From the NCBI GenBank assembly GCA_024673055.1, contig GCA_024673055.1_4537.1: a stretch of 64,000 nucleotides of DNA; one strand, 5' to 3'. The translations under genes were made by a program, and so were the position numbers. The number at the start of each line of letters is the position of its first letter. Position 1 is the stretch's first letter. The notes under the pieces were generated by a model that had not been told where the DNA came from, searched no databases, and saw nothing but the letters and a program-made list of their open reading frames with translations. This stretch comes from a phage. Positions 1,476 through 40,231 of this stretch are shown here, piece after piece.

Positions 1476-2695
1476 GTTTCCTCCTGTAATGTTCCACCAT
1501 AAAGTTTATAAATGTTTTGTATTGAGGCCATGCAAGATAACTCTACTGTTTCTGTGTAGCCATCTGGCATAGAATATTTGCTCACTGCTTCCGTGTGAAG
1601 GACACGCTTACAACGCTTCTCTGCATCTTTGCACTGCTTCGCAGTAGGGAAGTGCCACACTTGGACCTGTTTCATAGTAAACACATTACGACTATTTTGT
1701 TCTTTGATACGGCGATCACTATTATTGGCAATTCCAAATTTCAAAGCACAGAGAATACCTTGTTCATCATGAATGTGGTTAATGTAACATTGTTGTTGTG
1801 TCTGGTTAGCACATTGCGGACAACCAGTGCCATGATTTAACAAACTACTGGCACGTCCTATTTGTACCCCATGTTTCTTACATCCATATTTAAACTTACC
1901 TAATCTTACAGACGGTTTGCCTACCCATTCGATAAAAATCAAATCTTTTTTCTGCAACTCCTTTCTCATGCGGTATGTTAACTGCTGATCGCTAAACACA
2001 TAACGTGTAGAACAACGACAAGCGAGACTCCCGTTTTTAAGACTGCCCCTTGTAGAATAAAACTTACCATCACATACTCCAGCTTGTACATATTCGTCGT
2101 ATGAGCAAATAGGACATTTTATATACCAAATACTGTCGCTCTTTCCAGTACGTTCCCCTGTATTGATGAAGATGGTTCCTGGTTGGAAAGCGCCAGTATT
2201 CATGAAATCTTGTATGTGCTGATCGTCTGGGATAACCGCACACTTGCCTAATTCTCCTATTTTCTCAGCTTTGCATTTTGGGCATCCCGAACCTCTCTTG
2301 AAATTGGCAATACTGCAAGTATTCCATTCATGATAACAAACTTTACAACGGTTAATCATTTTAGTCCGTACACCTTTAAAAGGTTTCACAACCCCAATAA
2401 TCTCAATATCTCTTTCCTGTGCTAAAGGTTGACACTCTATAAGACAGGTTTCTAAGTTTTTCTTTTTAGCTTTACCTCTACTTTCCATTTCTTTTGCACA
2501 AACAGGACAACCACTACCCCTTTTAAAATGGTTAAAAGTCGTGGTATTCCATTCATGATTGCAATCTCTTCCCCGTAGGATCATTTTAGTCTTACTTCCC
2601 TTATCCTCTCCATACGTGCCGAGGATGATGATCCCCCTCTCAGTCGCTATCGGTGCGCACTCTTCCATATATTCTTCTATTGATTTACGTCTCAC
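1469..2695 (-). CDS. Cys-rich protein with three repeated zinc-ribbon modules
   Basis: Three copies of CxxxHEWNT...F(K/N)RGSGCP(V/K/Q)C plus additional CxxC pairs. Confidence 0.6.
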   Translation of the reverse strand: MRRKSIEEYMEECAPIATERGIIILGTYGEDKGSKTKMILRGRDCNHEWNTTTFNHFKRGSGCPVCAKEMESRGKAKKKNLETCLIECQPLAQERDIEIIGVVKPFKGVRTKMINRCKVCYHEWNTCSIANFKRGSGCPKCKAEKIGELGKCAVIPDDQHIQDFMNTGAFQPGTIFINTGERTGKSDSIWYIKCPICSYDEYVQAGVCDGKFYSTRGSLKNGSLACRCSTRYVFSDQQLTYRMRKELQKKDLIFIEWVGKPSVRLGKFKYGCKKHGVQIGRASSLLNHGTGCPQCANQTQQQCYINHIHDEQGILCALKFGIANNSDRRIKEQNSRNVFTMKQVQVWHFPTAKQCKDAEKRCKRVLHTEAVSKYSMPDGYTETVELSCMASIQNIYKLYGGTLQEETC

Positions 2696-2724
2696 CTAAC
2701 GATCCTCTCTATTAAACTAAAACC

Positions 2725-2753
2725 AATATAACAAAACCCGCCGAAGCGGGTTT
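2725..2753 (-). terminator. Rho-independent terminator (AAACCCGC-CGAA-GCGGGTTT) downstream of ATPase gene
   Basis: Perfect 8-bp stem at 2734-2753; T-run follows on minus strand. Confidence 0.5.
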
Positions 2754-2769
2754 AATAAATCTCAACTTA

Positions 2770-3909
2770 TTAGAACACGCTACCCAGTGTGGTGGAACGT
2801 TGTGTTACAGGCTCCAGCACCACTCGCAGAGTGTTTCCTGGTGTAGTGCTCATAACCAGAATCTTACCACCTTCAATCAGATCACAAGTTAGACCATCAG
2901 CCGTTGCACATAGATCAATATGTGGATCACCATCTTCATCCAGGATAACATAACTGTTGGTTTCCATTGCTTCCACTTCATCATCTTTCAAACTTTGTAG
3001 ATAGATGTTCAGGGAACAAGCACCCGACAAAAACTTAGTAGGGGTGAAGTCGTGCCAGTTATTGATCCAATTCACCTTCAGGGTTTTGCCATTAGCTACG
3101 ATAGAAGCCACAGTCCATTTAGCATCGTTGCCTAAAGAAATACCCATCATTTCAAGACATTCTTTAAAAGTCATTTTTGGATAGAAATTCAATTCTTCTA
3201 CAATACCTTGAATAACATCGAAAGACAACTCTGTGCTAACATCCCATAAACGTTGGAAGTTATCTACGTGCTTTTTATTTACCAAGTTCTTATCCAAGTA
3301 ATCTAACATAGTTTCACTAGACAGTTTATCGTAATTGAAACTGTAATAGATACGACTAGGACGGTTTACAAAATATTCCGAGATATAACCACTATTTTTA
3401 GTGAGGATGTAAAGTTTATTCCCACTTCCTGTTCCATCCAACAAGGTCAACAGTGCTTCCTGATCTTCTTTCTTAGCATACACTTTATCAAATTCGTCAA
3501 ATAAAACAACAGCACGATCTGTAATTTTACTCATAAATTCTAAGAATCCAGCATCTGTGTAAGGCTGTGTAACCAAAATGGTTGGAATACCTAAACCTTC
3601 TGTGGACATTAGGGACATGCTAATTAGTTTAGCTAACATCGTCTTACCACTGCCTTTTGTGCCTGTCAGTAACACCCCAGTATTTTTACCTTCTTTACTA
3701 CGACGAGCAAATGTTTTAATAACATGTGCGGCGCGATCTTTAGTTTCCCCATAAAGAGTGTTCGGAAGAGAGAAACTTTCGCCACGCACTAAAGAGTAGT
3801 TACCGTGCGGATCGCAGTTGACAACCCAAACTCCAGCAGGAAGTTTATTAGCTTCAACGCCATATTCCTTATTTACAACAGCTACATCTCCAAAAATAGT
3901 GTATTTCAT
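2770..3909 (-). CDS. P-loop NTPase (AAA-type ATPase)
   Basis: Walker A GTKGSGKT, Walker B VVLFDEFD. Confidence 0.65.
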   Translation of the reverse strand: MKYTIFGDVAVVNKEYGVEANKLPAGVWVVNCDPHGNYSLVRGESFSLPNTLYGETKDRAAHVIKTFARRSKEGKNTGVLLTGTKGSGKTMLAKLISMSLMSTEGLGIPTILVTQPYTDAGFLEFMSKITDRAVVLFDEFDKVYAKKEDQEALLTLLDGTGSGNKLYILTKNSGYISEYFVNRPSRIYYSFNYDKLSSETMLDYLDKNLVNKKHVDNFQRLWDVSTELSFDVIQGIVEELNFYPKMTFKECLEMMGISLGNDAKWTVASIVANGKTLKVNWINNWHDFTPTKFLSGACSLNIYLQSLKDDEVEAMETNSYVILDEDGDPHIDLCATADGLTCDLIEGGKILVMSTTPGNTLRVVLEPVTQRSTTLGSVF

Positions 3910-30689: not shown

Positions 30690-31373
30690 ATGGAAAATAT
30701 TAAAATCGGAGTGGGTGTTATCACTGTAGGTGTCCGTCCACTTAAAGACTACCTTGTAACAGATCCACGTGCAGATTTTCGAGTATTCAACGATCCAGAC
30801 CGTAAAGGTGTAGCTTATGCCAGGAATGAACTTATGCACCAGTTTTATGAAGAAGGTTATGATTATTGGTTTATTTTTGACGACGATTGCTACCCAGTCA
30901 TGGAAGGATGGGAAACATACTTTGTAGATCAAGCTGTTTCTGGAGGATGGGATTTCTTTGGTATGCCGGAGTACTTCAAAGATAAAGTTGTTGGAAGCAA
31001 AGGAGAAGTTATTCTCTGGGAACTTGCAATGTGTCAATTTGCAATGTATTCTCGTGCCGTTGTTGAGAAGATGGGTTATTTCCGCCCTTACACTCACGGT
31101 TATGGTTTTGAAGATGCCGAATGGGGACACCGTTTGAAAGCTGCTGGTTTGAATCATGGTATTCAGGCAACACCTTGTCCACTTCGTATCATGGCTTATA
31201 TCCACCCAGACGATGTTTTTGGAAACAATCCTATGCCTTTTGCTAATCTGACAAAAGAAGAGAAAGAAGCTGCTATCGGGATTAACTGGGAAGAATATAA
31301 AGCATCTTTAGAGGATATTAAAAATGGGAAAATCCGAATTTCCTATGAGGAGGCACTGGCACATGTCAAATAA
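30690..31373 (+). CDS. GT-A fold glycosyltransferase-like protein
   Basis: FIFDDDCYP (DxD), YGFEDAEWGHRL. Confidence 0.55.
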   Translation: MENIKIGVGVITVGVRPLKDYLVTDPRADFRVFNDPDRKGVAYARNELMHQFYEEGYDYWFIFDDDCYPVMEGWETYFVDQAVSGGWDFFGMPEYFKDKVVGSKGEVILWELAMCQFAMYSRAVVEKMGYFRPYTHGYGFEDAEWGHRLKAAGLNHGIQATPCPLRIMAYIHPDDVFGNNPMPFANLTKEEKEAAIGINWEEYKASLEDIKNGKIRISYEEALAHVK

Positions 31374-32310
31374 AAAATGGTCTAAACTAAAAATTGATGC
31401 GAAACCTCACAGCGGTTGTGACTATCATCGTATTGTTATGCCACTTAACAACCATAATCTTCAACCTAAGAAAGATGTTGTTGTGTTTAACCGTATCCAC
31501 TCTAAAGGTGCAGAATACGTTTTATCTTTGAAACGTCAAGGTGTTAAGATTGTTGTAGATTTAGATGATTTCTACCAACTTAATCCAGAACATTATTTAG
31601 CAAGTCTATACGAGTCAAACACTCATACTATTGTAGCTATGGTTAAGCTTGCTGATGTGGTTATTGTGACTACAGAATATTTGGCATATAAGATCCGTCA
31701 CTTAAATAGGAATGTTGTTGTGATCCGAAATGCACTTCCTTTTGATAGTGGACAATTCACTTTGTCAAATGATCGTTCATCCGGTACCCCTGTTGTATGG
31801 GCTGGAGGTGCTAGTCACGAACCAGATTTACGACTAGTCTCTAATACTTTCGATGATGAGCTTCTTACTATTGCGGGATATGAAGCATCGCAGAGCATCA
31901 CGGGACAAGAGTGGATTAAGATTCGCAGAAATTTACCAAATGCTAAATATAAAGCTGCTGTAAAAGATTTAGATAATTACATGAGTGTTTACGAAAGTCA
32001 TGCTATTGCTATAGCTCCTTTGGTAGATAATGATTTTAATAATTGTAAAAGTAATCTCAAAATCCTAGAAGCTGGAGCAAAGGGTATTCCGATTGTTTGT
32101 TCTAAGGTATTACCTTATTTTAACCCTGTAGATGCTCGTGCTGTTGCTTACGCAGAGAACAAAGCAGAATGGCATTACGAAATTGTTAAGCTTCTTCGCA
32201 ATCCAAACTATCGGGAAGATCGTGGCTTGTTCTTGGCTGAACATGTTCGAACACATTATAATCTGGCAGATGCAAATGAGTTGCGACGCCAGGTTATTGA
32301 AAGTTTGTAG
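31363..32310 (+). CDS. GT-B fold glycosyltransferase-like protein, paralog 1
   Basis: SNLKILEAGAKGIPIVCS resembles GT4-type E-A-x-A-x-G-x-P motif; ATG at 31363 after GAGGAGG. Confidence 0.55.
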   Translation: MSNKKWSKLKIDAKPHSGCDYHRIVMPLNNHNLQPKKDVVVFNRIHSKGAEYVLSLKRQGVKIVVDLDDFYQLNPEHYLASLYESNTHTIVAMVKLADVVIVTTEYLAYKIRHLNRNVVVIRNALPFDSGQFTLSNDRSSGTPVVWAGGASHEPDLRLVSNTFDDELLTIAGYEASQSITGQEWIKIRRNLPNAKYKAAVKDLDNYMSVYESHAIAIAPLVDNDFNNCKSNLKILEAGAKGIPIVCSKVLPYFNPVDARAVAYAENKAEWHYEIVKLLRNPNYREDRGLFLAEHVRTHYNLADANELRRQVIESL

Positions 32311-32317
32311 GTGAAGT

Positions 32318-33262
32318 ATGGGACAAATAATTCTTGACAATCGTAACGGAATCAATTATAGTGTCTGCGATTTCCATAGGGTAGTGCTGCCTTACTCAAG
32401 GCAGTTCTCTTCACAACCTAAATACAACGTTTTCGTTTTTAACGGAGTGCCAACAAAAGGTAAAGAGGGCTTTTTAGCCCTTAAAAACCTAGGCTTTAAA
32501 ATGGTTATGGATTTGGATGACTCTTTAGTTATTCCAAAAGGACACATGTTAGAAGGTATTTTTGAATCAGGTATTCGTGAACATTTAAAATGGTTTTTAG
32601 AGCACAGCGATCTTGTTACAACTACGACACCTGCTTTGCAAGTTGAACTTTCACAATACAATGATAATGTGCACATAATCCCTAATGGACTTCCTTACGA
32701 TGAAGGTCAATTTGTGTTGACCCGTGATCGCTACTCCAAAACTCCATTAGTCTGGGCTGGAAGTGAAACACATAAACAAGATTTGGCTATCTTACCTGAT
32801 TTTGGTAAAGATCTTACAATATGTGGTTTTCGTAGGGATTCTGAAGTTTTAAGTAGTCGTGAATGGTCTGTAATCAGAGAAAATGTAGCACCAACTTGTG
32901 TTTATGAAGGTGTAAGACCATATGCCAACTACATGGAATCTTACGATGGTCATCAAATCAGTCTTGCGCCATTGATTGATAACGTGTTTAATAATGCAAA
33001 AAGCAATCTTAAAATTCTTGAGGCAGGTGCTAAGGGTTTACCTTTGATCTGTTCTCCTCGTGAGAATTATCATACGCAAGAGTTTAAAGATTTGTTATTC
33101 TTTGCTGAAACACCTTCCGAGTGGAAAGATATTACGGAATACTTATTAAGTGCTCCCGATGTTTGCATGGAGAAAGGATTAGCATTAGCTAAGTATGTCA
33201 GGACTCATTATCACATTGATGTGTTGAATGAGCGTCGTAGACTTTTATTTGAGGAGCTATAA
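32318..33262 (+). CDS. GT-B fold glycosyltransferase-like protein, paralog 2
   Basis: Collinear similarity to 31363-32310 (VVFN..., DLDD, SNLKILEAGAKGLPLICS, YVRTHY). Confidence 0.55.
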   Translation: MGQIILDNRNGINYSVCDFHRVVLPYSRQFSSQPKYNVFVFNGVPTKGKEGFLALKNLGFKMVMDLDDSLVIPKGHMLEGIFESGIREHLKWFLEHSDLVTTTTPALQVELSQYNDNVHIIPNGLPYDEGQFVLTRDRYSKTPLVWAGSETHKQDLAILPDFGKDLTICGFRRDSEVLSSREWSVIRENVAPTCVYEGVRPYANYMESYDGHQISLAPLIDNVFNNAKSNLKILEAGAKGLPLICSPRENYHTQEFKDLLFFAETPSEWKDITEYLLSAPDVCMEKGLALAKYVRTHYHIDVLNERRRLLFEEL

Positions 33263-35863: not shown

Positions 35864-36658
35864 TTGAGCAAGTTGAACACACTTGATCAATATTACACTA
35901 ACCCCGCTTATGCGGGGTTCTTATGTGATAAGATCAAAGAAATTTTTGGAGAGGAAGCTAACTACGTAGAACCATCTGCGGGAGAAGGAGCTTTCTCTTC
36001 TTGTTTTAAAAACATAACTTCTTTTGATATTGACCCTAAGTTTGAAGATTGTATTGAGGCAGATTTTTTAGCTCAATCTGTTGAGTCTGTTGGTAGTGTA
36101 ACTGCTTTTGTCGGTAATCCCCCGTTTGGAAAAAATGCTAGTCTTGCCATTAAGTTCTTTAACCATTGTGCTGAAATGTTGGATAACGAAGGTGGTATTT
36201 GTTTTATCTTGCCTCGCACATTTCAAAAAATCTTTTTTGCACACAAACTAAATCCCCACATGCATCTTCTTTACGAAGAAGAATGTCCAAAAGGATCTTT
36301 TATTCTTCATGGAGAACCTTGGGATGTTCCTTGCGTATTCCAGATATGGATTAAACGCAATGAGAAGCGTTCTCCCGTTGTTTTAGGAGAGAATCGACTG
36401 TTCGTATTAGGTAACAGTAAAGACTACGATATAGCCGTTAGGAGAGCGGGAGCAAGTGCAGGTAAAGTGTTATCAGAAGAAGATTCTTTATCTGAAGCAT
36501 CCACCTATTTTTTAAAAGCCTTGACTTCTGATCTTAAAACGCGTATCATTGAGGCTTACCCGTTACTTAAAGCTGAAGCTAGTAAAACTGCGGGAGTAAG
36601 AAGTTTAAGTTTAAAAGAACTTCAGTGGGTTCTGGAGAACATTAGAAAGGAGGAATAG
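35864..36658 (+). CDS. SAM-dependent N6-adenine/N4-cytosine-type methyltransferase (orphan)
   Basis: Motif I EPSAGEGAF, motif IV NPPF; TTG start after GGAGGA. Confidence 0.55.
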   Translation: MSKLNTLDQYYTNPAYAGFLCDKIKEIFGEEANYVEPSAGEGAFSSCFKNITSFDIDPKFEDCIEADFLAQSVESVGSVTAFVGNPPFGKNASLAIKFFNHCAEMLDNEGGICFILPRTFQKIFFAHKLNPHMHLLYEEECPKGSFILHGEPWDVPCVFQIWIKRNEKRSPVVLGENRLFVLGNSKDYDIAVRRAGASAGKVLSEEDSLSEASTYFLKALTSDLKTRIIEAYPLLKAEASKTAGVRSLSLKELQWVLENIRKEE

Positions 36659-39600
36659 TGAGTAAGTTTACATGGGATATTGAAGCAAACGGATTGTTGA
36701 ATAATGACACTATTGATTATTTAGCTAGTCCTTATCGTCTCAAAGACACATTTCAAATGCACTGTATTGTCTTAGAGAACCATGAAACAGGAGAAATAGT
36801 AGCTTTCCACGATGGCCCTAAATACATCTTTGATGGGCGTCCTTATGAAGAGTCAGATGGTAAATACACATATGTTCTTAAAGAGTATGTGGCGCAAGAT
36901 TACACACATTTTCAACTAAAAGATTTCCCAGACTTTATTAATCATGAAGGTTATTTTAAAGATAAGCCTGAATATCTGGTTGAAATGGCTGTGGCTCACA
37001 ACGGTATCAACTACGACTGGTTGGCTACAAAACTGTTTTATGGCTTAGATTACAGTGTTAAATATAACACGTGGGGCAAAAATAAGGTAAAACTTATTGA
37101 CTCCTTGATTTTGAGTAAAGTGTTAAACCCAGATCGAAAGATTGAGGGCAAATCAGGACATAGTTTGGCAGCACTTTCTCGAAAGGCAGGTGGTGATGTA
37201 AAAATAGATTTCCGTAAAGAGATTCCAGAAGAAGATCGATTTAAGACTTTTGCTGCGGATATGCTTTATTACTGTATTTATGACAACAAAGCCAATACGA
37301 GCGTATATAATTACCTTATGGAAGAATGGGGCGATTATGATAAATGGGAAGGTCCATTTGAACTTGAACAACGTGTAGCAGACATTATTACACGCCAGGA
37401 ACACCGTGGGTTTGCTTTTAACATGAAGCAAGCAGAAGAGAACCTTGCTTTTTTGGATGCAGAAATGGAGCGTCTTCGTTTACTCGTTGAGCCTATTTTG
37501 CCACCTAAACCAGCAACAAAAGGTTATCTTAAGGCTTTTATTCCACCTAAGTTGCAAATTAAAAAGAACTTAGAGCCAACTAACCATATGATCAATTTTG
37601 CTAAGAAACATGATGGTCATTTGGAAGAGAGGGATGGCGATTGGTGGTTAGTTATGTTGGGGAAAGAGTGGAAACTGCCAGTTGCAGCAGATGAGCCTCT
37701 ATGTGATCCTAACATTCCTGCAACATTGAACGATACAACCCATATTAAAAACTGGCTCGTAGGATTAGGTTGGGTACCGTCTGAATATAAAGATAAAGAC
37801 TTGACGCTTAAATCTGGCACCAAAATTAAAAAGAGCGAGGAAGAACTTCAGAAAGGTATTAGAGCTTACGTTGAGCAAACTCTATCTTCTAATTTTTGTC
37901 AGGATCGTTGTGATCATCTGGAGTGCACACCGGAAACTTTGGAAAGGAAGATTCAAGAGCGTATAGCAAAAGGTAAAGGTCGCGGTCTTAAAGTATTGAC
38001 TAACCCATGTTTTACCAAAGGTCAGGAAAAAGAAATTTGTCCTAACCTGCAAGCTTTGGGTGAGAAATTTCCTTATGCTACACAGATTGTAGAATACTTA
38101 ACGTATAAGCATCGTAGGAACTCTATTTTAGGTGGCGGTGCTGATTGGGAAGAAGATGAAGAAGATCAAGAATACGATAAAGGTTTCTTAGCCGCAGTAA
38201 GGGCGGATGGGCGTATTCCTACACCAGCCGCTACATGTGATGCTGCAACCTCTCGTATGAAACATAGATCTGTAGCTAATATTCCTCGTGTCACATCTTT
38301 GTTTGGATGGGAGATGCGTAACTTGTTTGGTGTAGAGGTTCCTAAATACTTCCAGATTGGCTACGACTTCGACTCTTTGGAAGCAAAAATTGAATCGCAT
38401 TACTGTGTGCCGATGGATGCTCAAGCTTTGACTCGTAAAGGTTGGGTAGGATATCACGACCTGAAGGAAGGGGATGAGATTTTAGGGTACAATGCTGAAA
38501 CAGGTCTGAAAGAATGGACTAAAGTAAAAGGTAAGGTCTTCTATAAAAATAGTAAGACGTTTGAGATTAAAGGGAAATCACACACTTACCGTGCAACAGC
38601 AGATCACCGTTGGTATGTTAATACCCGTAGTAAAGGGAATACTTATGTGCCTAAAGTCAGAACAACTGCCGAGCTTTGCACAGGAGATAACATTATTTGT
38701 AATGCTCCATTTAACATGGAACAAGATCAGGTAAATAGTTTAACTTCTGTTCAACAGGGTAAATGGGATGTTCCGTGGGTAGAACGTGTAGTTAATATGT
38801 CTCATGCCGAGCGTGTAGCTTTCTTGGAAGGTTTCTTGATTGCAGATGGTTACTGGCACGAACATAAACAAAAACCTGTTTGGCGTTGGGCGCAGAACCC
38901 AGGTGAACTTTTTGAAGCAGCTTTAACTGCCTCGTACCTGGTGCATGGAGGCAATATCTCTGTAGCTTTCAATACAAAAGAGCAGAAAGTAAAAGTGGCA
39001 ACATTGACTAACCGCTCTCACATTCCTGTTCAAAGTTTGACTATTGAAGAGTGGGGTGTAGAAGATGTTTGGTGTCCACAAACAGAACTTGGTACGTGGG
39101 TCATGCGTCAGAAAGACTGCATTACCATCACAGGAAACTGTTGGCGGTACGAGCCGGAGCCACACGAATATTGTAACGCTCTGTTGTTAGAGAAACCTAA
39201 TGATGTTCACACAATGATGGCAAAACGTATCACTGAAACTATTGGACGTAAATTTGAACGTAGTCCTGCTAAATCTGTTAAGTATGGTATTACCTATGGT
39301 GCACAAGCCGACAAGGTTGCTAAAACAATTGGTAGCGACAAGTTTACAGGTCAATTGGTGTTCGATGCTTTCTGGGAAGCTGCATTCCCATTGGCGCGTC
39401 TTAAAGAACGTTTAAACGATTTCTGGGTTAAGACTGGTAAACAATATGTTTTGGGTATTGACGGTCGTAAGGTTCCTACTCGTTCTGCTCACGCGATTCT
39501 TAACTCTCTGTTCCAAAGCGGTGGGGTTATCTGTGCTAAACGTGCAATGGTTATTTATGATGACATGATCGAAGAAGAAGGGCTAAGTGTTGACTTCTTT

Positions 39601-39990
39601 AAAGATGACTGGAAGAATAAAGACTTCGTGCAACAAATGATTGCATATCACGATGAAGCCCAGCTTGAAGTTTCTCGTAACCTTGTAGAATTCAAATGGT
39701 TTTCACCGGAATCATTAGGTTGGAAGAAAGTAGACGATCCTGAAGAACAAAAGAAAATTGATAAAGAATGCCTTGCTAAAGTTGAAGAATGGAAGCATAA
39801 TAAGGAAAAAGAGACAGGGCAAATTTGGGCTAACATTCATGAATCTCCCAAAGGTGGATGGTTTACAGCTTATAGTCGGGCAGGTGAACTTGCTGCTTTA
39901 GCTGTTACTAAGGCTGGAGAATTTTACAATCTTAATGTTCAGCTTACTGCTGGATATGACGTGGGGAATTCCTGGGCCAGTTGTCACTGA
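36658..39990 (+). CDS. family A DNA polymerase with 3'-5' exonuclease domain, interrupted by an intein
   Basis: Exo I WDIEANGL; motif A DFDSLEAKIESHY; motif B RSPAKSVKYGITYG; motif C YHDEAQLEV; about 245-aa insert between motifs A and B. Confidence 0.9.
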   Translation: MSKFTWDIEANGLLNNDTIDYLASPYRLKDTFQMHCIVLENHETGEIVAFHDGPKYIFDGRPYEESDGKYTYVLKEYVAQDYTHFQLKDFPDFINHEGYFKDKPEYLVEMAVAHNGINYDWLATKLFYGLDYSVKYNTWGKNKVKLIDSLILSKVLNPDRKIEGKSGHSLAALSRKAGGDVKIDFRKEIPEEDRFKTFAADMLYYCIYDNKANTSVYNYLMEEWGDYDKWEGPFELEQRVADIITRQEHRGFAFNMKQAEENLAFLDAEMERLRLLVEPILPPKPATKGYLKAFIPPKLQIKKNLEPTNHMINFAKKHDGHLEERDGDWWLVMLGKEWKLPVAADEPLCDPNIPATLNDTTHIKNWLVGLGWVPSEYKDKDLTLKSGTKIKKSEEELQKGIRAYVEQTLSSNFCQDRCDHLECTPETLERKIQERIAKGKGRGLKVLTNPCFTKGQEKEICPNLQALGEKFPYATQIVEYLTYKHRRNSILGGGADWEEDEEDQEYDKGFLAAVRADGRIPTPAATCDAATSRMKHRSVANIPRVTSLFGWEMRNLFGVEVPKYFQIGYDFDSLEAKIESHYCVPMDAQALTRKGWVGYHDLKEGDEILGYNAETGLKEWTKVKGKVFYKNSKTFEIKGKSHTYRATADHRWYVNTRSKGNTYVPKVRTTAELCTGDNIICNAPFNMEQDQVNSLTSVQQGKWDVPWVERVVNMSHAERVAFLEGFLIADGYWHEHKQKPVWRWAQNPGELFEAALTASYLVHGGNISVAFNTKEQKVKVATLTNRSHIPVQSLTIEEWGVEDVWCPQTELGTWVMRQKDCITITGNCWRYEPEPHEYCNALLLEKPNDVHTMMAKRITETIGRKFERSPAKSVKYGITYGAQADKVAKTIGSDKFTGQLVFDAFWEAAFPLARLKERLNDFWVKTGKQYVLGIDGRKVPTRSAHAILNSLFQSGGVICAKRAMVIYDDMIEEEGLSVDFFKDDWKNKDFVQQMIAYHDEAQLEVSRNLVEFKWFSPESLGWKKVDDPEEQKKIDKECLAKVEEWKHNKEKETGQIWANIHESPKGGWFTAYSRAGELAALAVTKAGEFYNLNVQLTAGYDVGNSWASCH
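38404..39138 (+). mobile_element. intein (about 245 aa) within the DNA polymerase, with degenerate LAGLIDADG-like block
   Basis: Starts with Cys right after motif A; block B-like RATADHRWYV; LEGFLIADGYW; ends ...ITGN followed by Cys; flanks resemble uninterrupted T7-type pol sequence. Confidence 0.65.
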
Positions 39991-40008
39991 TCTAACGTAT
40001 TGTTTTAT

Positions 40009-40030
40009 AAGGGGCTTCTGCCCCTTTATA
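40009..40030 (+). terminator. Rho-independent terminator GGGGC-TTCT-GCCCC + TTTATA
   Basis: Hairpin after polymerase stop. Confidence 0.55.
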
Positions 40031-40039
40031 GGAGAAGAT

Positions 40040-40231
40040 ATGAGTTACGATTTAGATTGTTTTGGTATGCCTTATCTACCAGATGAATTTGAAGGTGAAG
40101 AAGAACGTGAATGGGACGATGGGGATATCCGTTGTTGGTCTTGTGGCAAAGATATGTCTTATGAACAACATATGCACAATGATGGTTTCTGCATACATTG
40201 TTATAATGAAATTGATCTGGAGGAAGATTAA
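40040..40231 (+). CDS. small zinc-ribbon protein (63 aa)
   Basis: CWSCG...CIHCY; ATG at 40040 after GGAGAAG. Confidence 0.4.
   Translation: MSYDLDCFGMPYLPDEFEGEEEREWDDGDIRCWSCGKDMSYEQHMHNDGFCIHCYNEIDLEED

Follow-up and report, generated by a model that had tools for sequence, protein, structure and literature searches.

Evidence for an intein with a putative single LAGLIDADG half-domain in the family A DNA polymerase of a Phapecoctavirus-like phage

Our analysis of a 64,000-nucleotide stretch of phage DNA (GenBank assembly GCA_024673055.1, contig GCA_024673055.1_4537.1; the whole stretch is called the window below) indicates that positions 38404-39138 very probably encode a real and functional intein, lying within an essential family A DNA polymerase. 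A sequence-only reading of the window had placed an intein between motifs A and B of this polymerase, and that proposal is borne out by the existence of alleles with and without the insert, by the residues at its junctions and by support for a Hint fold, and further by homology to inteins in other host proteins, by purifying selection and by independent annotation in GenBank. The intein itself is not new, as it is already annotated in sister phages.

Results

The insert and its place in the polymerase gene

The open reading frame (ORF) that holds the insert matches the Pfam profile of family A DNA polymerases above cut-off (DNA_pol_A, PF00476, E 2e-11). At the nucleotide (nt) level, the polymerase gene is closest to the DNA polymerase I gene of Escherichia phage EF1-1 (98.9% identity), and it is 97-99% identical to many genes of Phapecoctavirus-type coliphages (Stephanstirmvirinae, phi92/phAPEC8-like). 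The parts of the precursor, with lengths in amino acids (aa), are as follows.

36658..39990 (+): ORF of the intein-containing family A DNA polymerase precursor, 1110 aa plus stop (from the ORF list)
36658..38403 (+): N-extein, 582 aa, C-terminal end GYDFDSLEAKIESHY (direct reading; collinear with the intein-free allele of Acinetobacter phage ABPW7)
38365-38382 (+): motif A, DFDSLE (direct reading)
38404..39138 (+): intein, 245 aa, Cys1 to Asn245
39139..39987 (+): C-extein, 283 aa, N-terminal CWRYEPEPHEY (direct reading; collinear with the intein-free allele)
39271-39300 (+): motif B, KSVKYGITYG (direct reading)

The insert consists of 735 nt, or 245 codons, in frame and free of stop codons (CVPMD...ITITGN, then Cys), and its insertion point lies 8 residues past the catalytic motif A. 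It opens with TGT (Cys, 38404-38406) right after GYDFDSLEAKIESHY and ends with AAC (Asn, 39136-39138), which is followed by TGT (Cys, 39139-39141); downstream of it the polymerase resumes in the order WRYEPEPHEY...DVHTMMAKRI...KSVKYGITYG. The strings on which the sequence-only reading had been based were all located in the insert: CVPMDAQALT at residues 1-10, RATADHRWYV at 63-72, FLEGFLIADGYW at 140-151, and the terminal GN.

Presence, absence and mobility of the insert

The polymerase gene of phage ABPW7 (OP562383) is 99.3% identical to that of the window at the nt level and is without exactly these 735 nt. It encodes a polymerase of 865 aa that reads ...KIESHY/CWRYEPE... across the site (a slash marks a junction here and below), with no more than 3 differences from the window in the 180 nt that flank the insertion; the ABPW7-type empty site has the sequence GAATCGCATTAC/TGTTGGCGGTAC. 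The comparison with intein-free homologous polymerases, which had been proposed as a check on the intein, thus yields an allele that is without precisely the 245 codons, and the segment did not turn up in homologues as a conserved non-intein insertion. The whole polymerase gene is covered in 34 records, and others cover 78% of it in two pieces, that is, all but the 735 nt. When 180 nt reconstructed across the junction were searched in phage records as an empty-site query, 326 matching places were found in 290 records; the site is contiguous in 219, and it is split in at most 36 of the 290 records (326 places), in agreement with the 35 records in which the insert is encoded at an identity of at least 90%. 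Presence in some alleles and precise absence from others is the pattern classically left by a mobile intervening sequence.

The same element occurs at the same site in phages PaulScherrer (Bas60, MZ501100) and SD2 (PQ821640), where the intein likewise has 245 aa (97.6% aa and 92% nt identity); PaulScherrer belongs to the genus Justusliebigvirus, whereas the genome of the window is Phapecoctavirus-like. In the comparison between Phapecoctavirus and Justusliebigvirus, the inteins are 92.1% identical at the nt level as against 72% for the N-exteins and 79% for the C-exteins, and the tract of high identity (38458-39207) coincides with the intein. As the inteins are more alike than the exteins that surround them, the intein has moved between the two lineages after their polymerases had diverged. 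Taken together, the distribution and the discordance between intein and exteins show an element that moves from phage to phage at the DNA level, or did so until recently. On the other side, recombination of the ordinary kind in co-infections by different phages would be another way to account for the distribution, and the intein of Klebsiella phage KP13-16 has diverged in step with its exteins (77% nt identity in the intein, 74-76% in the exteins), which is consistent with vertical descent of that copy. No anomaly of base composition was found in the intein (GC 0.41-0.45, vs 0.39-0.43 in the flanks).

The Cys at +1 is native to the polymerase lineage, since it is present both in the intein-less ABPW7 and in the distant Pseudomonas phage PAK_P3. 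The DNA match to PAK_P3 ends at the junction; it was set aside as a case of simple divergence, the PAK_P3 polymerase being intein-less with 885 aa. Phages of the nepoznato type carry Thr instead of Cys at the insertion site of the window (TAT/ACGTGGAGATAT), with the substitutions clustered right there. As a separate observation, Escherichia phages alia and outra have their polymerase annotated as 'DNA polymerase, part I', a name that hints at another lineage in which the polymerase gene is split, or interrupted in some other way.

A large family of related inteins

Relatives of the intein were collected by an exhaustive homologue search, a word-indexed search having returned only 9 proteins. 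At E<=1e-3 it matched 2300 cluster representatives, a number that falls to 835 at E<=1e-10 and to 80 at E<=1e-30. Both intein ends could be located in 154 relatives: Cys1 is present in 154 of 154 and the Gly-Asn end in 153, and the +1 residue is Ser in 66, Cys in 46 and Thr in 42, with no other residue observed. The median length of these relatives is 253 aa (119 of the 154 have 200-280 aa, 31 have more than 280 aa and 4 are minis). Conserved columns were computed on 119 relatives of 235-265 aa and comprise C1, G13, W14, G23, W38, T65, H68, W70 and A101, as well as V222-W223-C224, T227, Q236 and I242-T243-G244-N245. A profile of 119 related inteins scores the segment of the window at E 5e-91 over its full length, and it found no second intein of the same family elsewhere in the window.

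Most of the relatives reside in family A polymerases, where they occupy motif B, the SSPN site or the window's own site (relatives P0012, P0019 and P0022), while others sit in a small FDVYP/SAYANG protein and in further hosts; so wide a range of hosts is to be expected for inteins, whereas a domain specific to polymerases would not show it. When ten full-length relatives (among P0010-P0086) were scanned, eight matched DNA_pol_A and two matched no polymerase or intein model, and none of the ten gave a match to an intein model of Pfam-A or NCBIfam at E<=0.001. The intein family is large but effectively unannotated, being missed by Pfam and NCBIfam at their thresholds, and this is probably why most records simply say 'DNA polymerase I'.

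One homologue deserves separate mention, a 324-aa intein in motif B of the same host gene, found in phages nepoznato, ukendt, nieznany, phiWec187 and AV126 (32% identity to the window intein). The two share the termini CVP.D...T(I/L)TGN/C, but the 324-aa intein has two LAGLIDADG motifs, unlike the window's one, and it is with the second of these that the window intein aligns. Its site lies 49 residues downstream (KSVKYG/C...TLTGN/C), at a place equivalent to 39288/39289 of the window, between KSVKYG and ITYG; in nepoznato (MN850571) it occupies 2501-3472, and Cys replaces Ile at +1. It is present in 12 records, including four 'Campylobacter phage' records, and as there is one matching place per record in both intein searches, no record carries both inteins. 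The nepoznato record has no intein annotation, and the product names listed for the other 11 records do not include an intein. The four Campylobacter phage records (MG065639, MG065645, MG065656 and MG065689; 146 kb, unannotated) have a Phapecoctavirus-type polymerase with the nepoznato-type intein (99.7% identity), and their attribution to a Campylobacter host looks doubtful.

Splicing blocks, fold and selection

Within the intein, the splicing blocks and their conservation are as follows.

38404..38442 (+): block A, CVPMDAQALTRKG; Cys1 as N-terminal nucleophile (154/154 relatives), G13 and W14 near-invariant
38596..38613 (+): block B core, T65-A-D-H68-R-W70 (TxxH, with Trp at B:12); T65 118/119, H68 119/119, W70 118/119
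39064..39111 (+): block F, DVWCPQTELGTWVMRQ; V222, W223, C224 (119/119), T227 and Q236 conserved
39073-39075 (+): Cys224, position F:4
39118..39141 (+): block G, CITITGN plus Cys+1; T243 119/119, G244 118/119, N245 119/119

The insert has the Cys as first residue, the Thr-x-x-His of block B and the terminal Asn followed by Cys+1 that mark an intein. In block G, where Thr243 is G:5 and Asn245 the terminal residue, the penultimate position is taken by Gly244 instead of the usual His. Inteins without a penultimate His can splice (PMC5050341; PMC7664689), and in phage inteins its place at G:6 is often taken by Gly, Lys or Ser (PMC5050341). An experimental precedent for the Gly is the gp51 (RDF) intein of mycobacteriophage Bethlehem, whose penultimate residue is naturally a Gly and which splices efficiently, indeed better than its own G316H mutant, which accumulates precursor (PMC5050341). 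The gp51 intein and other phage class 1 inteins that lack the penultimate His nevertheless differ from the window intein in their host protein, belong to an unrelated family and have a canonical two-motif endonuclease.

The predicted fold of the insert is that of a Hint domain. The best structural match of the better of its models is the endonuclease-associated TliVMA intein (18.6, 229 of 246) and the second best the AceL NrdHF intein (18.2, 143), followed by the NpuDnaB intein (17.4, 132), the NrdJ-1 intein (17.1, 131), PI-PkoII (16.8, 223), the Hedgehog Hint domain (16.6, 138) and PI-PfuI (16.1, 223). In sequence searches of the PDB, the family profile matched the Spl DnaX intein (2e-5), the NrdJ-1 intein (3.6e-5) and gp41-1 (0.003); family profiles were needed for this link because a search with the single sequence of the insert gave weak matches only (E 0.075 or higher). 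The intein differs from the phi92/PaulScherrer allele by 52 synonymous and 6 non-synonymous changes, with a ratio of non-synonymous to synonymous substitution rates (dN/dS) of 0.024.

Some observations weigh against a functional intein. The window polymerase reaches 16.6 bits with the Pfam model Intein_splicing (PF14890), for which the cut-off is 35.8, and an NCBIfam scan of the same protein found nothing; the penultimate His and the usual His of block F are both absent from the insert; and splicing of the window intein is itself inferred, from the viability of phages that carry the intein in an essential polymerase and from the purifying selection acting on it. With splicing inferred and the curated intein models below threshold, the insert might be seen as a permanent, tolerated insertion domain, or as a dead intein kept in the mature enzyme. 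We consider this highly improbable, given that all catalytic positions are conserved under the low dN/dS, that the insert sits so close behind the catalytic motif A, that the polymerase flanks are unchanged relative to intein-free alleles, so that the host protein has not adapted to it, and that carriers have been isolated many times as viable lytic phages. Since group I introns bearing homing endonuclease genes are known from phage polymerase genes, a self-splicing group I or II intron with an in-frame ORF was weighed as well. There is hardly any chance of this, as the frame is continuous and in phase over both junctions, the edges fall exactly at the Cys and Asn/Cys codons, the excess of synonymous over non-synonymous changes reveals conservation at the protein level, and the fold is Hint.

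As an intein, the insert would be translated as part of the 1110-aa precursor, fold as a Hint domain and excise itself, and IESHY would be joined to CWRYEPE to give the 865-aa polymerase that intein-free sister phages encode directly. The sequence-only reading had also supposed, from the penultimate Gly and the small size, that the intein may be degenerate or atypical. The first of these terms finds no support, in view of the Gly-Asn end of nearly all relatives, a modal size of about 250 aa in the family and the strong purifying selection. The second is fair in comparison with textbook inteins: the Gly-Asn end and the size are normal for the family, but the single LAGLIDADG half-domain and a class 3 Trp/Cys/Thr triplet combined with Cys1 (both discussed below) do set the intein apart.

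Splicing class

The residues W70 (B:12, 38611-38613), C224 (F:4, 39073-39075) and T243 (G:5, 39130-39132) form the triplet of class 3 inteins (block numbering for B:12, F:4 and G:5 after PMC2807308), which is conserved in 118, 119 and 119 of the 119 relatives, respectively. Class 3 inteins normally have no N-terminal nucleophile, whereas Cys1 is invariant here, and they have Ser or Thr at +1 with one known exception, whereas the window intein has Cys+1. The family profile matches the class 3 AceL NrdHF intein at E 0.0034, does not match MchDnaB-1 and scores class 1 inteins higher. Of 37 inteins with the Trp/Cys/Thr (WCT) triplet examined by Tori et al., three had Ser1 or Cys1, and the authors did not decide how these splice. 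According to a later paper, Cys at F:4 also occurs in class 1 inteins, which are polyphyletic in this respect, in contrast to the monophyletic class 3 (PMC3196547).

Class 1 chemistry is in our opinion the most likely route, an assignment made with moderate confidence and favoured because Cys1, the Thr at B:7 and the His at B:10 are invariant, because 30% of the members have Cys+1, and because the family profile scores class 1 inteins higher and leaves MchDnaB-1 undetected. By this route, an N-S acyl shift at Cys1, aided by Thr65 and His68, would be followed by transfer to Cys+1, cyclisation of Asn245 and an S-N shift; the Asn cyclisation would have to proceed without a penultimate His, as in the whole family. 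The assignment is uncertain, as the triplet Trp B:12/Cys F:4/Thr G:5 is invariant in the family, and the same intein might instead follow a relay or the class 3 route. In the latter, an attack of Cys224 on the N-terminal junction would produce a thioester branched at block F, from which the N-extein moves on to Cys+1; Cys1 could be dispensed with or would have a secondary part, for example as a redox partner. A class 3 or relay route we regard as rather unlikely: the presence of Cys1 in all relatives with located ends argues that it is needed, the invariant Thr B:7 and His B:10 are class 1-like, Cys+1 is rare in class 3 but present in almost a third of the family including the window member, the profile misses the canonical class 3 intein MchDnaB-1, and a Cys at F:4 is known from the polyphyletic class 1 inteins mentioned above. 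The combination of Cys1, the WCT triplet and a Gly-Asn end might, on a more speculative reading, point either to a relay with two nucleophiles (Cys1, then Cys F:4, then +1) or to a form that stands midway between the two classes. An origin of class 3 inteins in a phage intein has been proposed.

Canonical class 1 inteins (PI-SceI, PI-PfuI, PI-PkoII, TliVMA) have 360-540 aa, a two-motif endonuclease, a penultimate His and Asp at F:4, whereas the window intein has 245 aa, one half-domain, Gly and Cys. With class 3 inteins (Bethlehem DnaB, MchDnaB-1, AceL NrdHF) it has the Trp/Cys/Thr triplet and a phage origin in common, and AceL NrdHF is likewise without a penultimate His; unlike them, its family has the invariant Cys1, this member has Cys+1, and there is no specific sequence affinity to the DnaB-type clade.

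The nested LAGLIDADG half-domain

A second domain is nested between blocks B and F, with the following elements.

38764..39015 (+): single LAGLIDADG half-domain, residues ~121-204
38821-38850 (+): motif FLEGFLIADG
38845-38847 (+): D148
38893-38895 (+): Q164

Its predicted order is a helix (134-148, FLEGFLIAD), two strands, a helix (168-180) and two further strands, and in this model residues ~121-204 (about 85) are one LAGLIDADG core unit. A profile of the nested domain alone matched only LAGLIDADG enzymes in the PDB (I-DmoI, I-HjeMI, TliVMA, I-Tsp061I and I-AniI), weakly, at E 0.06-1. In the alignment, D148-G149 coincides with the GDG of I-DmoI, and Q164 with the Gln in the ITQK of that enzyme; position 148 is Asp or Glu in 117 of 119 relatives, G149 is conserved in 117 and Q164 in all 119. 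Canonical intein endonucleases carry two LAGLIDADG motifs. The window intein has a LAGLIDADG core with the acidic residue that ends the motif helix, but one motif only and not the two-motif, pseudo-dimeric domain of blocks C and E. It shares its plan with homodimeric enzymes of the I-CreI type: a single LAGLIDADG helix with Asp-Gly at its end, then a beta-hairpin that finishes with a conserved Gln, then a helix and another hairpin. Those enzymes differ from it in being free-standing or intron-encoded, in their size of ~160 aa and in possessing additional helices at the C-terminus and a conserved Lys. No single-motif example of the I-CreI type nested in an intein was found in the literature searched.

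The half-domain most likely still serves mobility through recognition or cleavage of DNA, possibly as a dimer, although we put this forward tentatively. Site-specific cleavage of the intein-less allele has indirect support from the alleles with and without the insert and from the unequal divergence of intein and exteins. Were it active, the half-domain would have to act as a homodimer of two inteins or of two precursors. Two results weigh against such a role: neither an intein with a conserved single half-domain nor an endonuclease role for one has been described in the literature searched, and no clear pseudo-palindrome, which a homodimeric enzyme would lead one to expect, was found at the reconstructed empty site, where the best candidate, with 6 of 11 positions, is no better than chance over many centres.

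It is also possible, if on balance unlikely, that the intein is real but that its half-domain is a non-catalytic remnant of a halved two-motif endonuclease, the element being spread by vertical descent and general recombination, with no homing. The 324-aa nepoznato relative has two motifs, over the first of which the window intein is gapped by ~80 residues, and a remnant would be in keeping with the single motif, with the lack, after the fourth strand, of the helices found there in I-CreI-type enzymes, with an empty site that shows no clear pseudo-palindrome and with the KP13-16 copy that diverged in step with its exteins. Decay, however, would predict variable lengths and the loss of D/E148, G149 and Q164, whereas 119 of the 154 relatives keep within the tight size range of the single-motif form around the 253-aa median, the residues that align with the catalytic Asp and the Gln of I-DmoI are kept, the dN/dS of the nested domain alone is 0.042, and the intein is far more similar between the two genera than the exteins are. 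The nested half-domain looks less like a decaying remnant.

Other sources of an endonuclease were considered in the window. Out-of-frame or antisense endonuclease ORFs have been described for actinophage inteins; there is none in this intein, as the only other ORFs of at least 60 aa to overlap it are short antisense ones, two in number (80 and 89 aa), each of which runs across one of its ends, and this possibility was rejected. No free-standing homing endonuclease adjoining the gene was recognisable among the neighbours, which are a primase/helicase, a 154-aa protein of unknown function, a DNA methyltransferase, a nucleotidyltransferase and small unknown proteins; the 154-aa ORF is unrelated to phi92 gp160, which is annotated as 'potential endonuclease'.

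Neighbouring genes

A 98-aa ORF (39935-40231, +) overlaps the 3' end of the polymerase gene in a different frame. Within its C-terminal 63 aa, which match phrog_25582 (unknown function), a CxxC...CxxC spacing suggests a zinc ribbon; the ABPW7 homologue is annotated with a start further downstream (64 aa). In the replication module, just upstream of the primase/helicase, lie two tandem paralogous glycosyltransferase genes (31324-32310 and 32318-33262, +), both matching phrog_7162 at E about 1e-145.

Discussion

According to the BASEL paper, its inteins were identified by comparative genomics (PMC8594841). The PaulScherrer record (MZ501100) names the product 'intein-containing DNA polymerase precursor' and gives the polymerase and the intein a mat_peptide each; the SD2 record (PQ821640) uses the same product name. 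The intein mat_peptide of MZ501100 (2504-3238, VPMD...GNC) lies one codon downstream of the placement given here, by which Cys1...Asn/Cys+1 would occupy 2501-3235. Because a Cys flanks both ends, the two placements are indistinguishable by alignment; the chemistry of inteins and the alignment of the family require the boundaries Cys1...Asn245/Cys, and the placement in MZ501100 is incompatible with them. No intein is annotated in phi92 gp159 or in the RefSeq records, most GenBank and RefSeq records use only the names 'DNA polymerase I' or 'hypothetical protein', and as late as 2024 a paper held that there were no reports of inteins from coliphages (PMC11162368).

It is conceivable, though we would not press the point, that the window intein represents a large and mostly uncatalogued family of phage inteins in which two departures from the textbook are linked, namely the single LAGLIDADG half-domain and the active site made up of Cys1, the WCT triplet and Gly-Asn. 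It is at the level of this family that the residual interest lies, in the single half-domain, in the Cys1-plus-WCT active site and in the invisibility of the inteins to curated profiles. Two questions are raised by it: whether an intein with Cys1 plus the triplet splices via class 1, via class 3 or via both, and whether homing can be driven by a single LAGLIDADG half-domain inside an intein. For the phages themselves, which include therapeutic-candidate coliphages, correct annotation means a mature polymerase of 865 aa and not of 1110 aa, and the family offers a natural intein that is compact (245 aa), compatible with E. coli and has a Cys at each junction.

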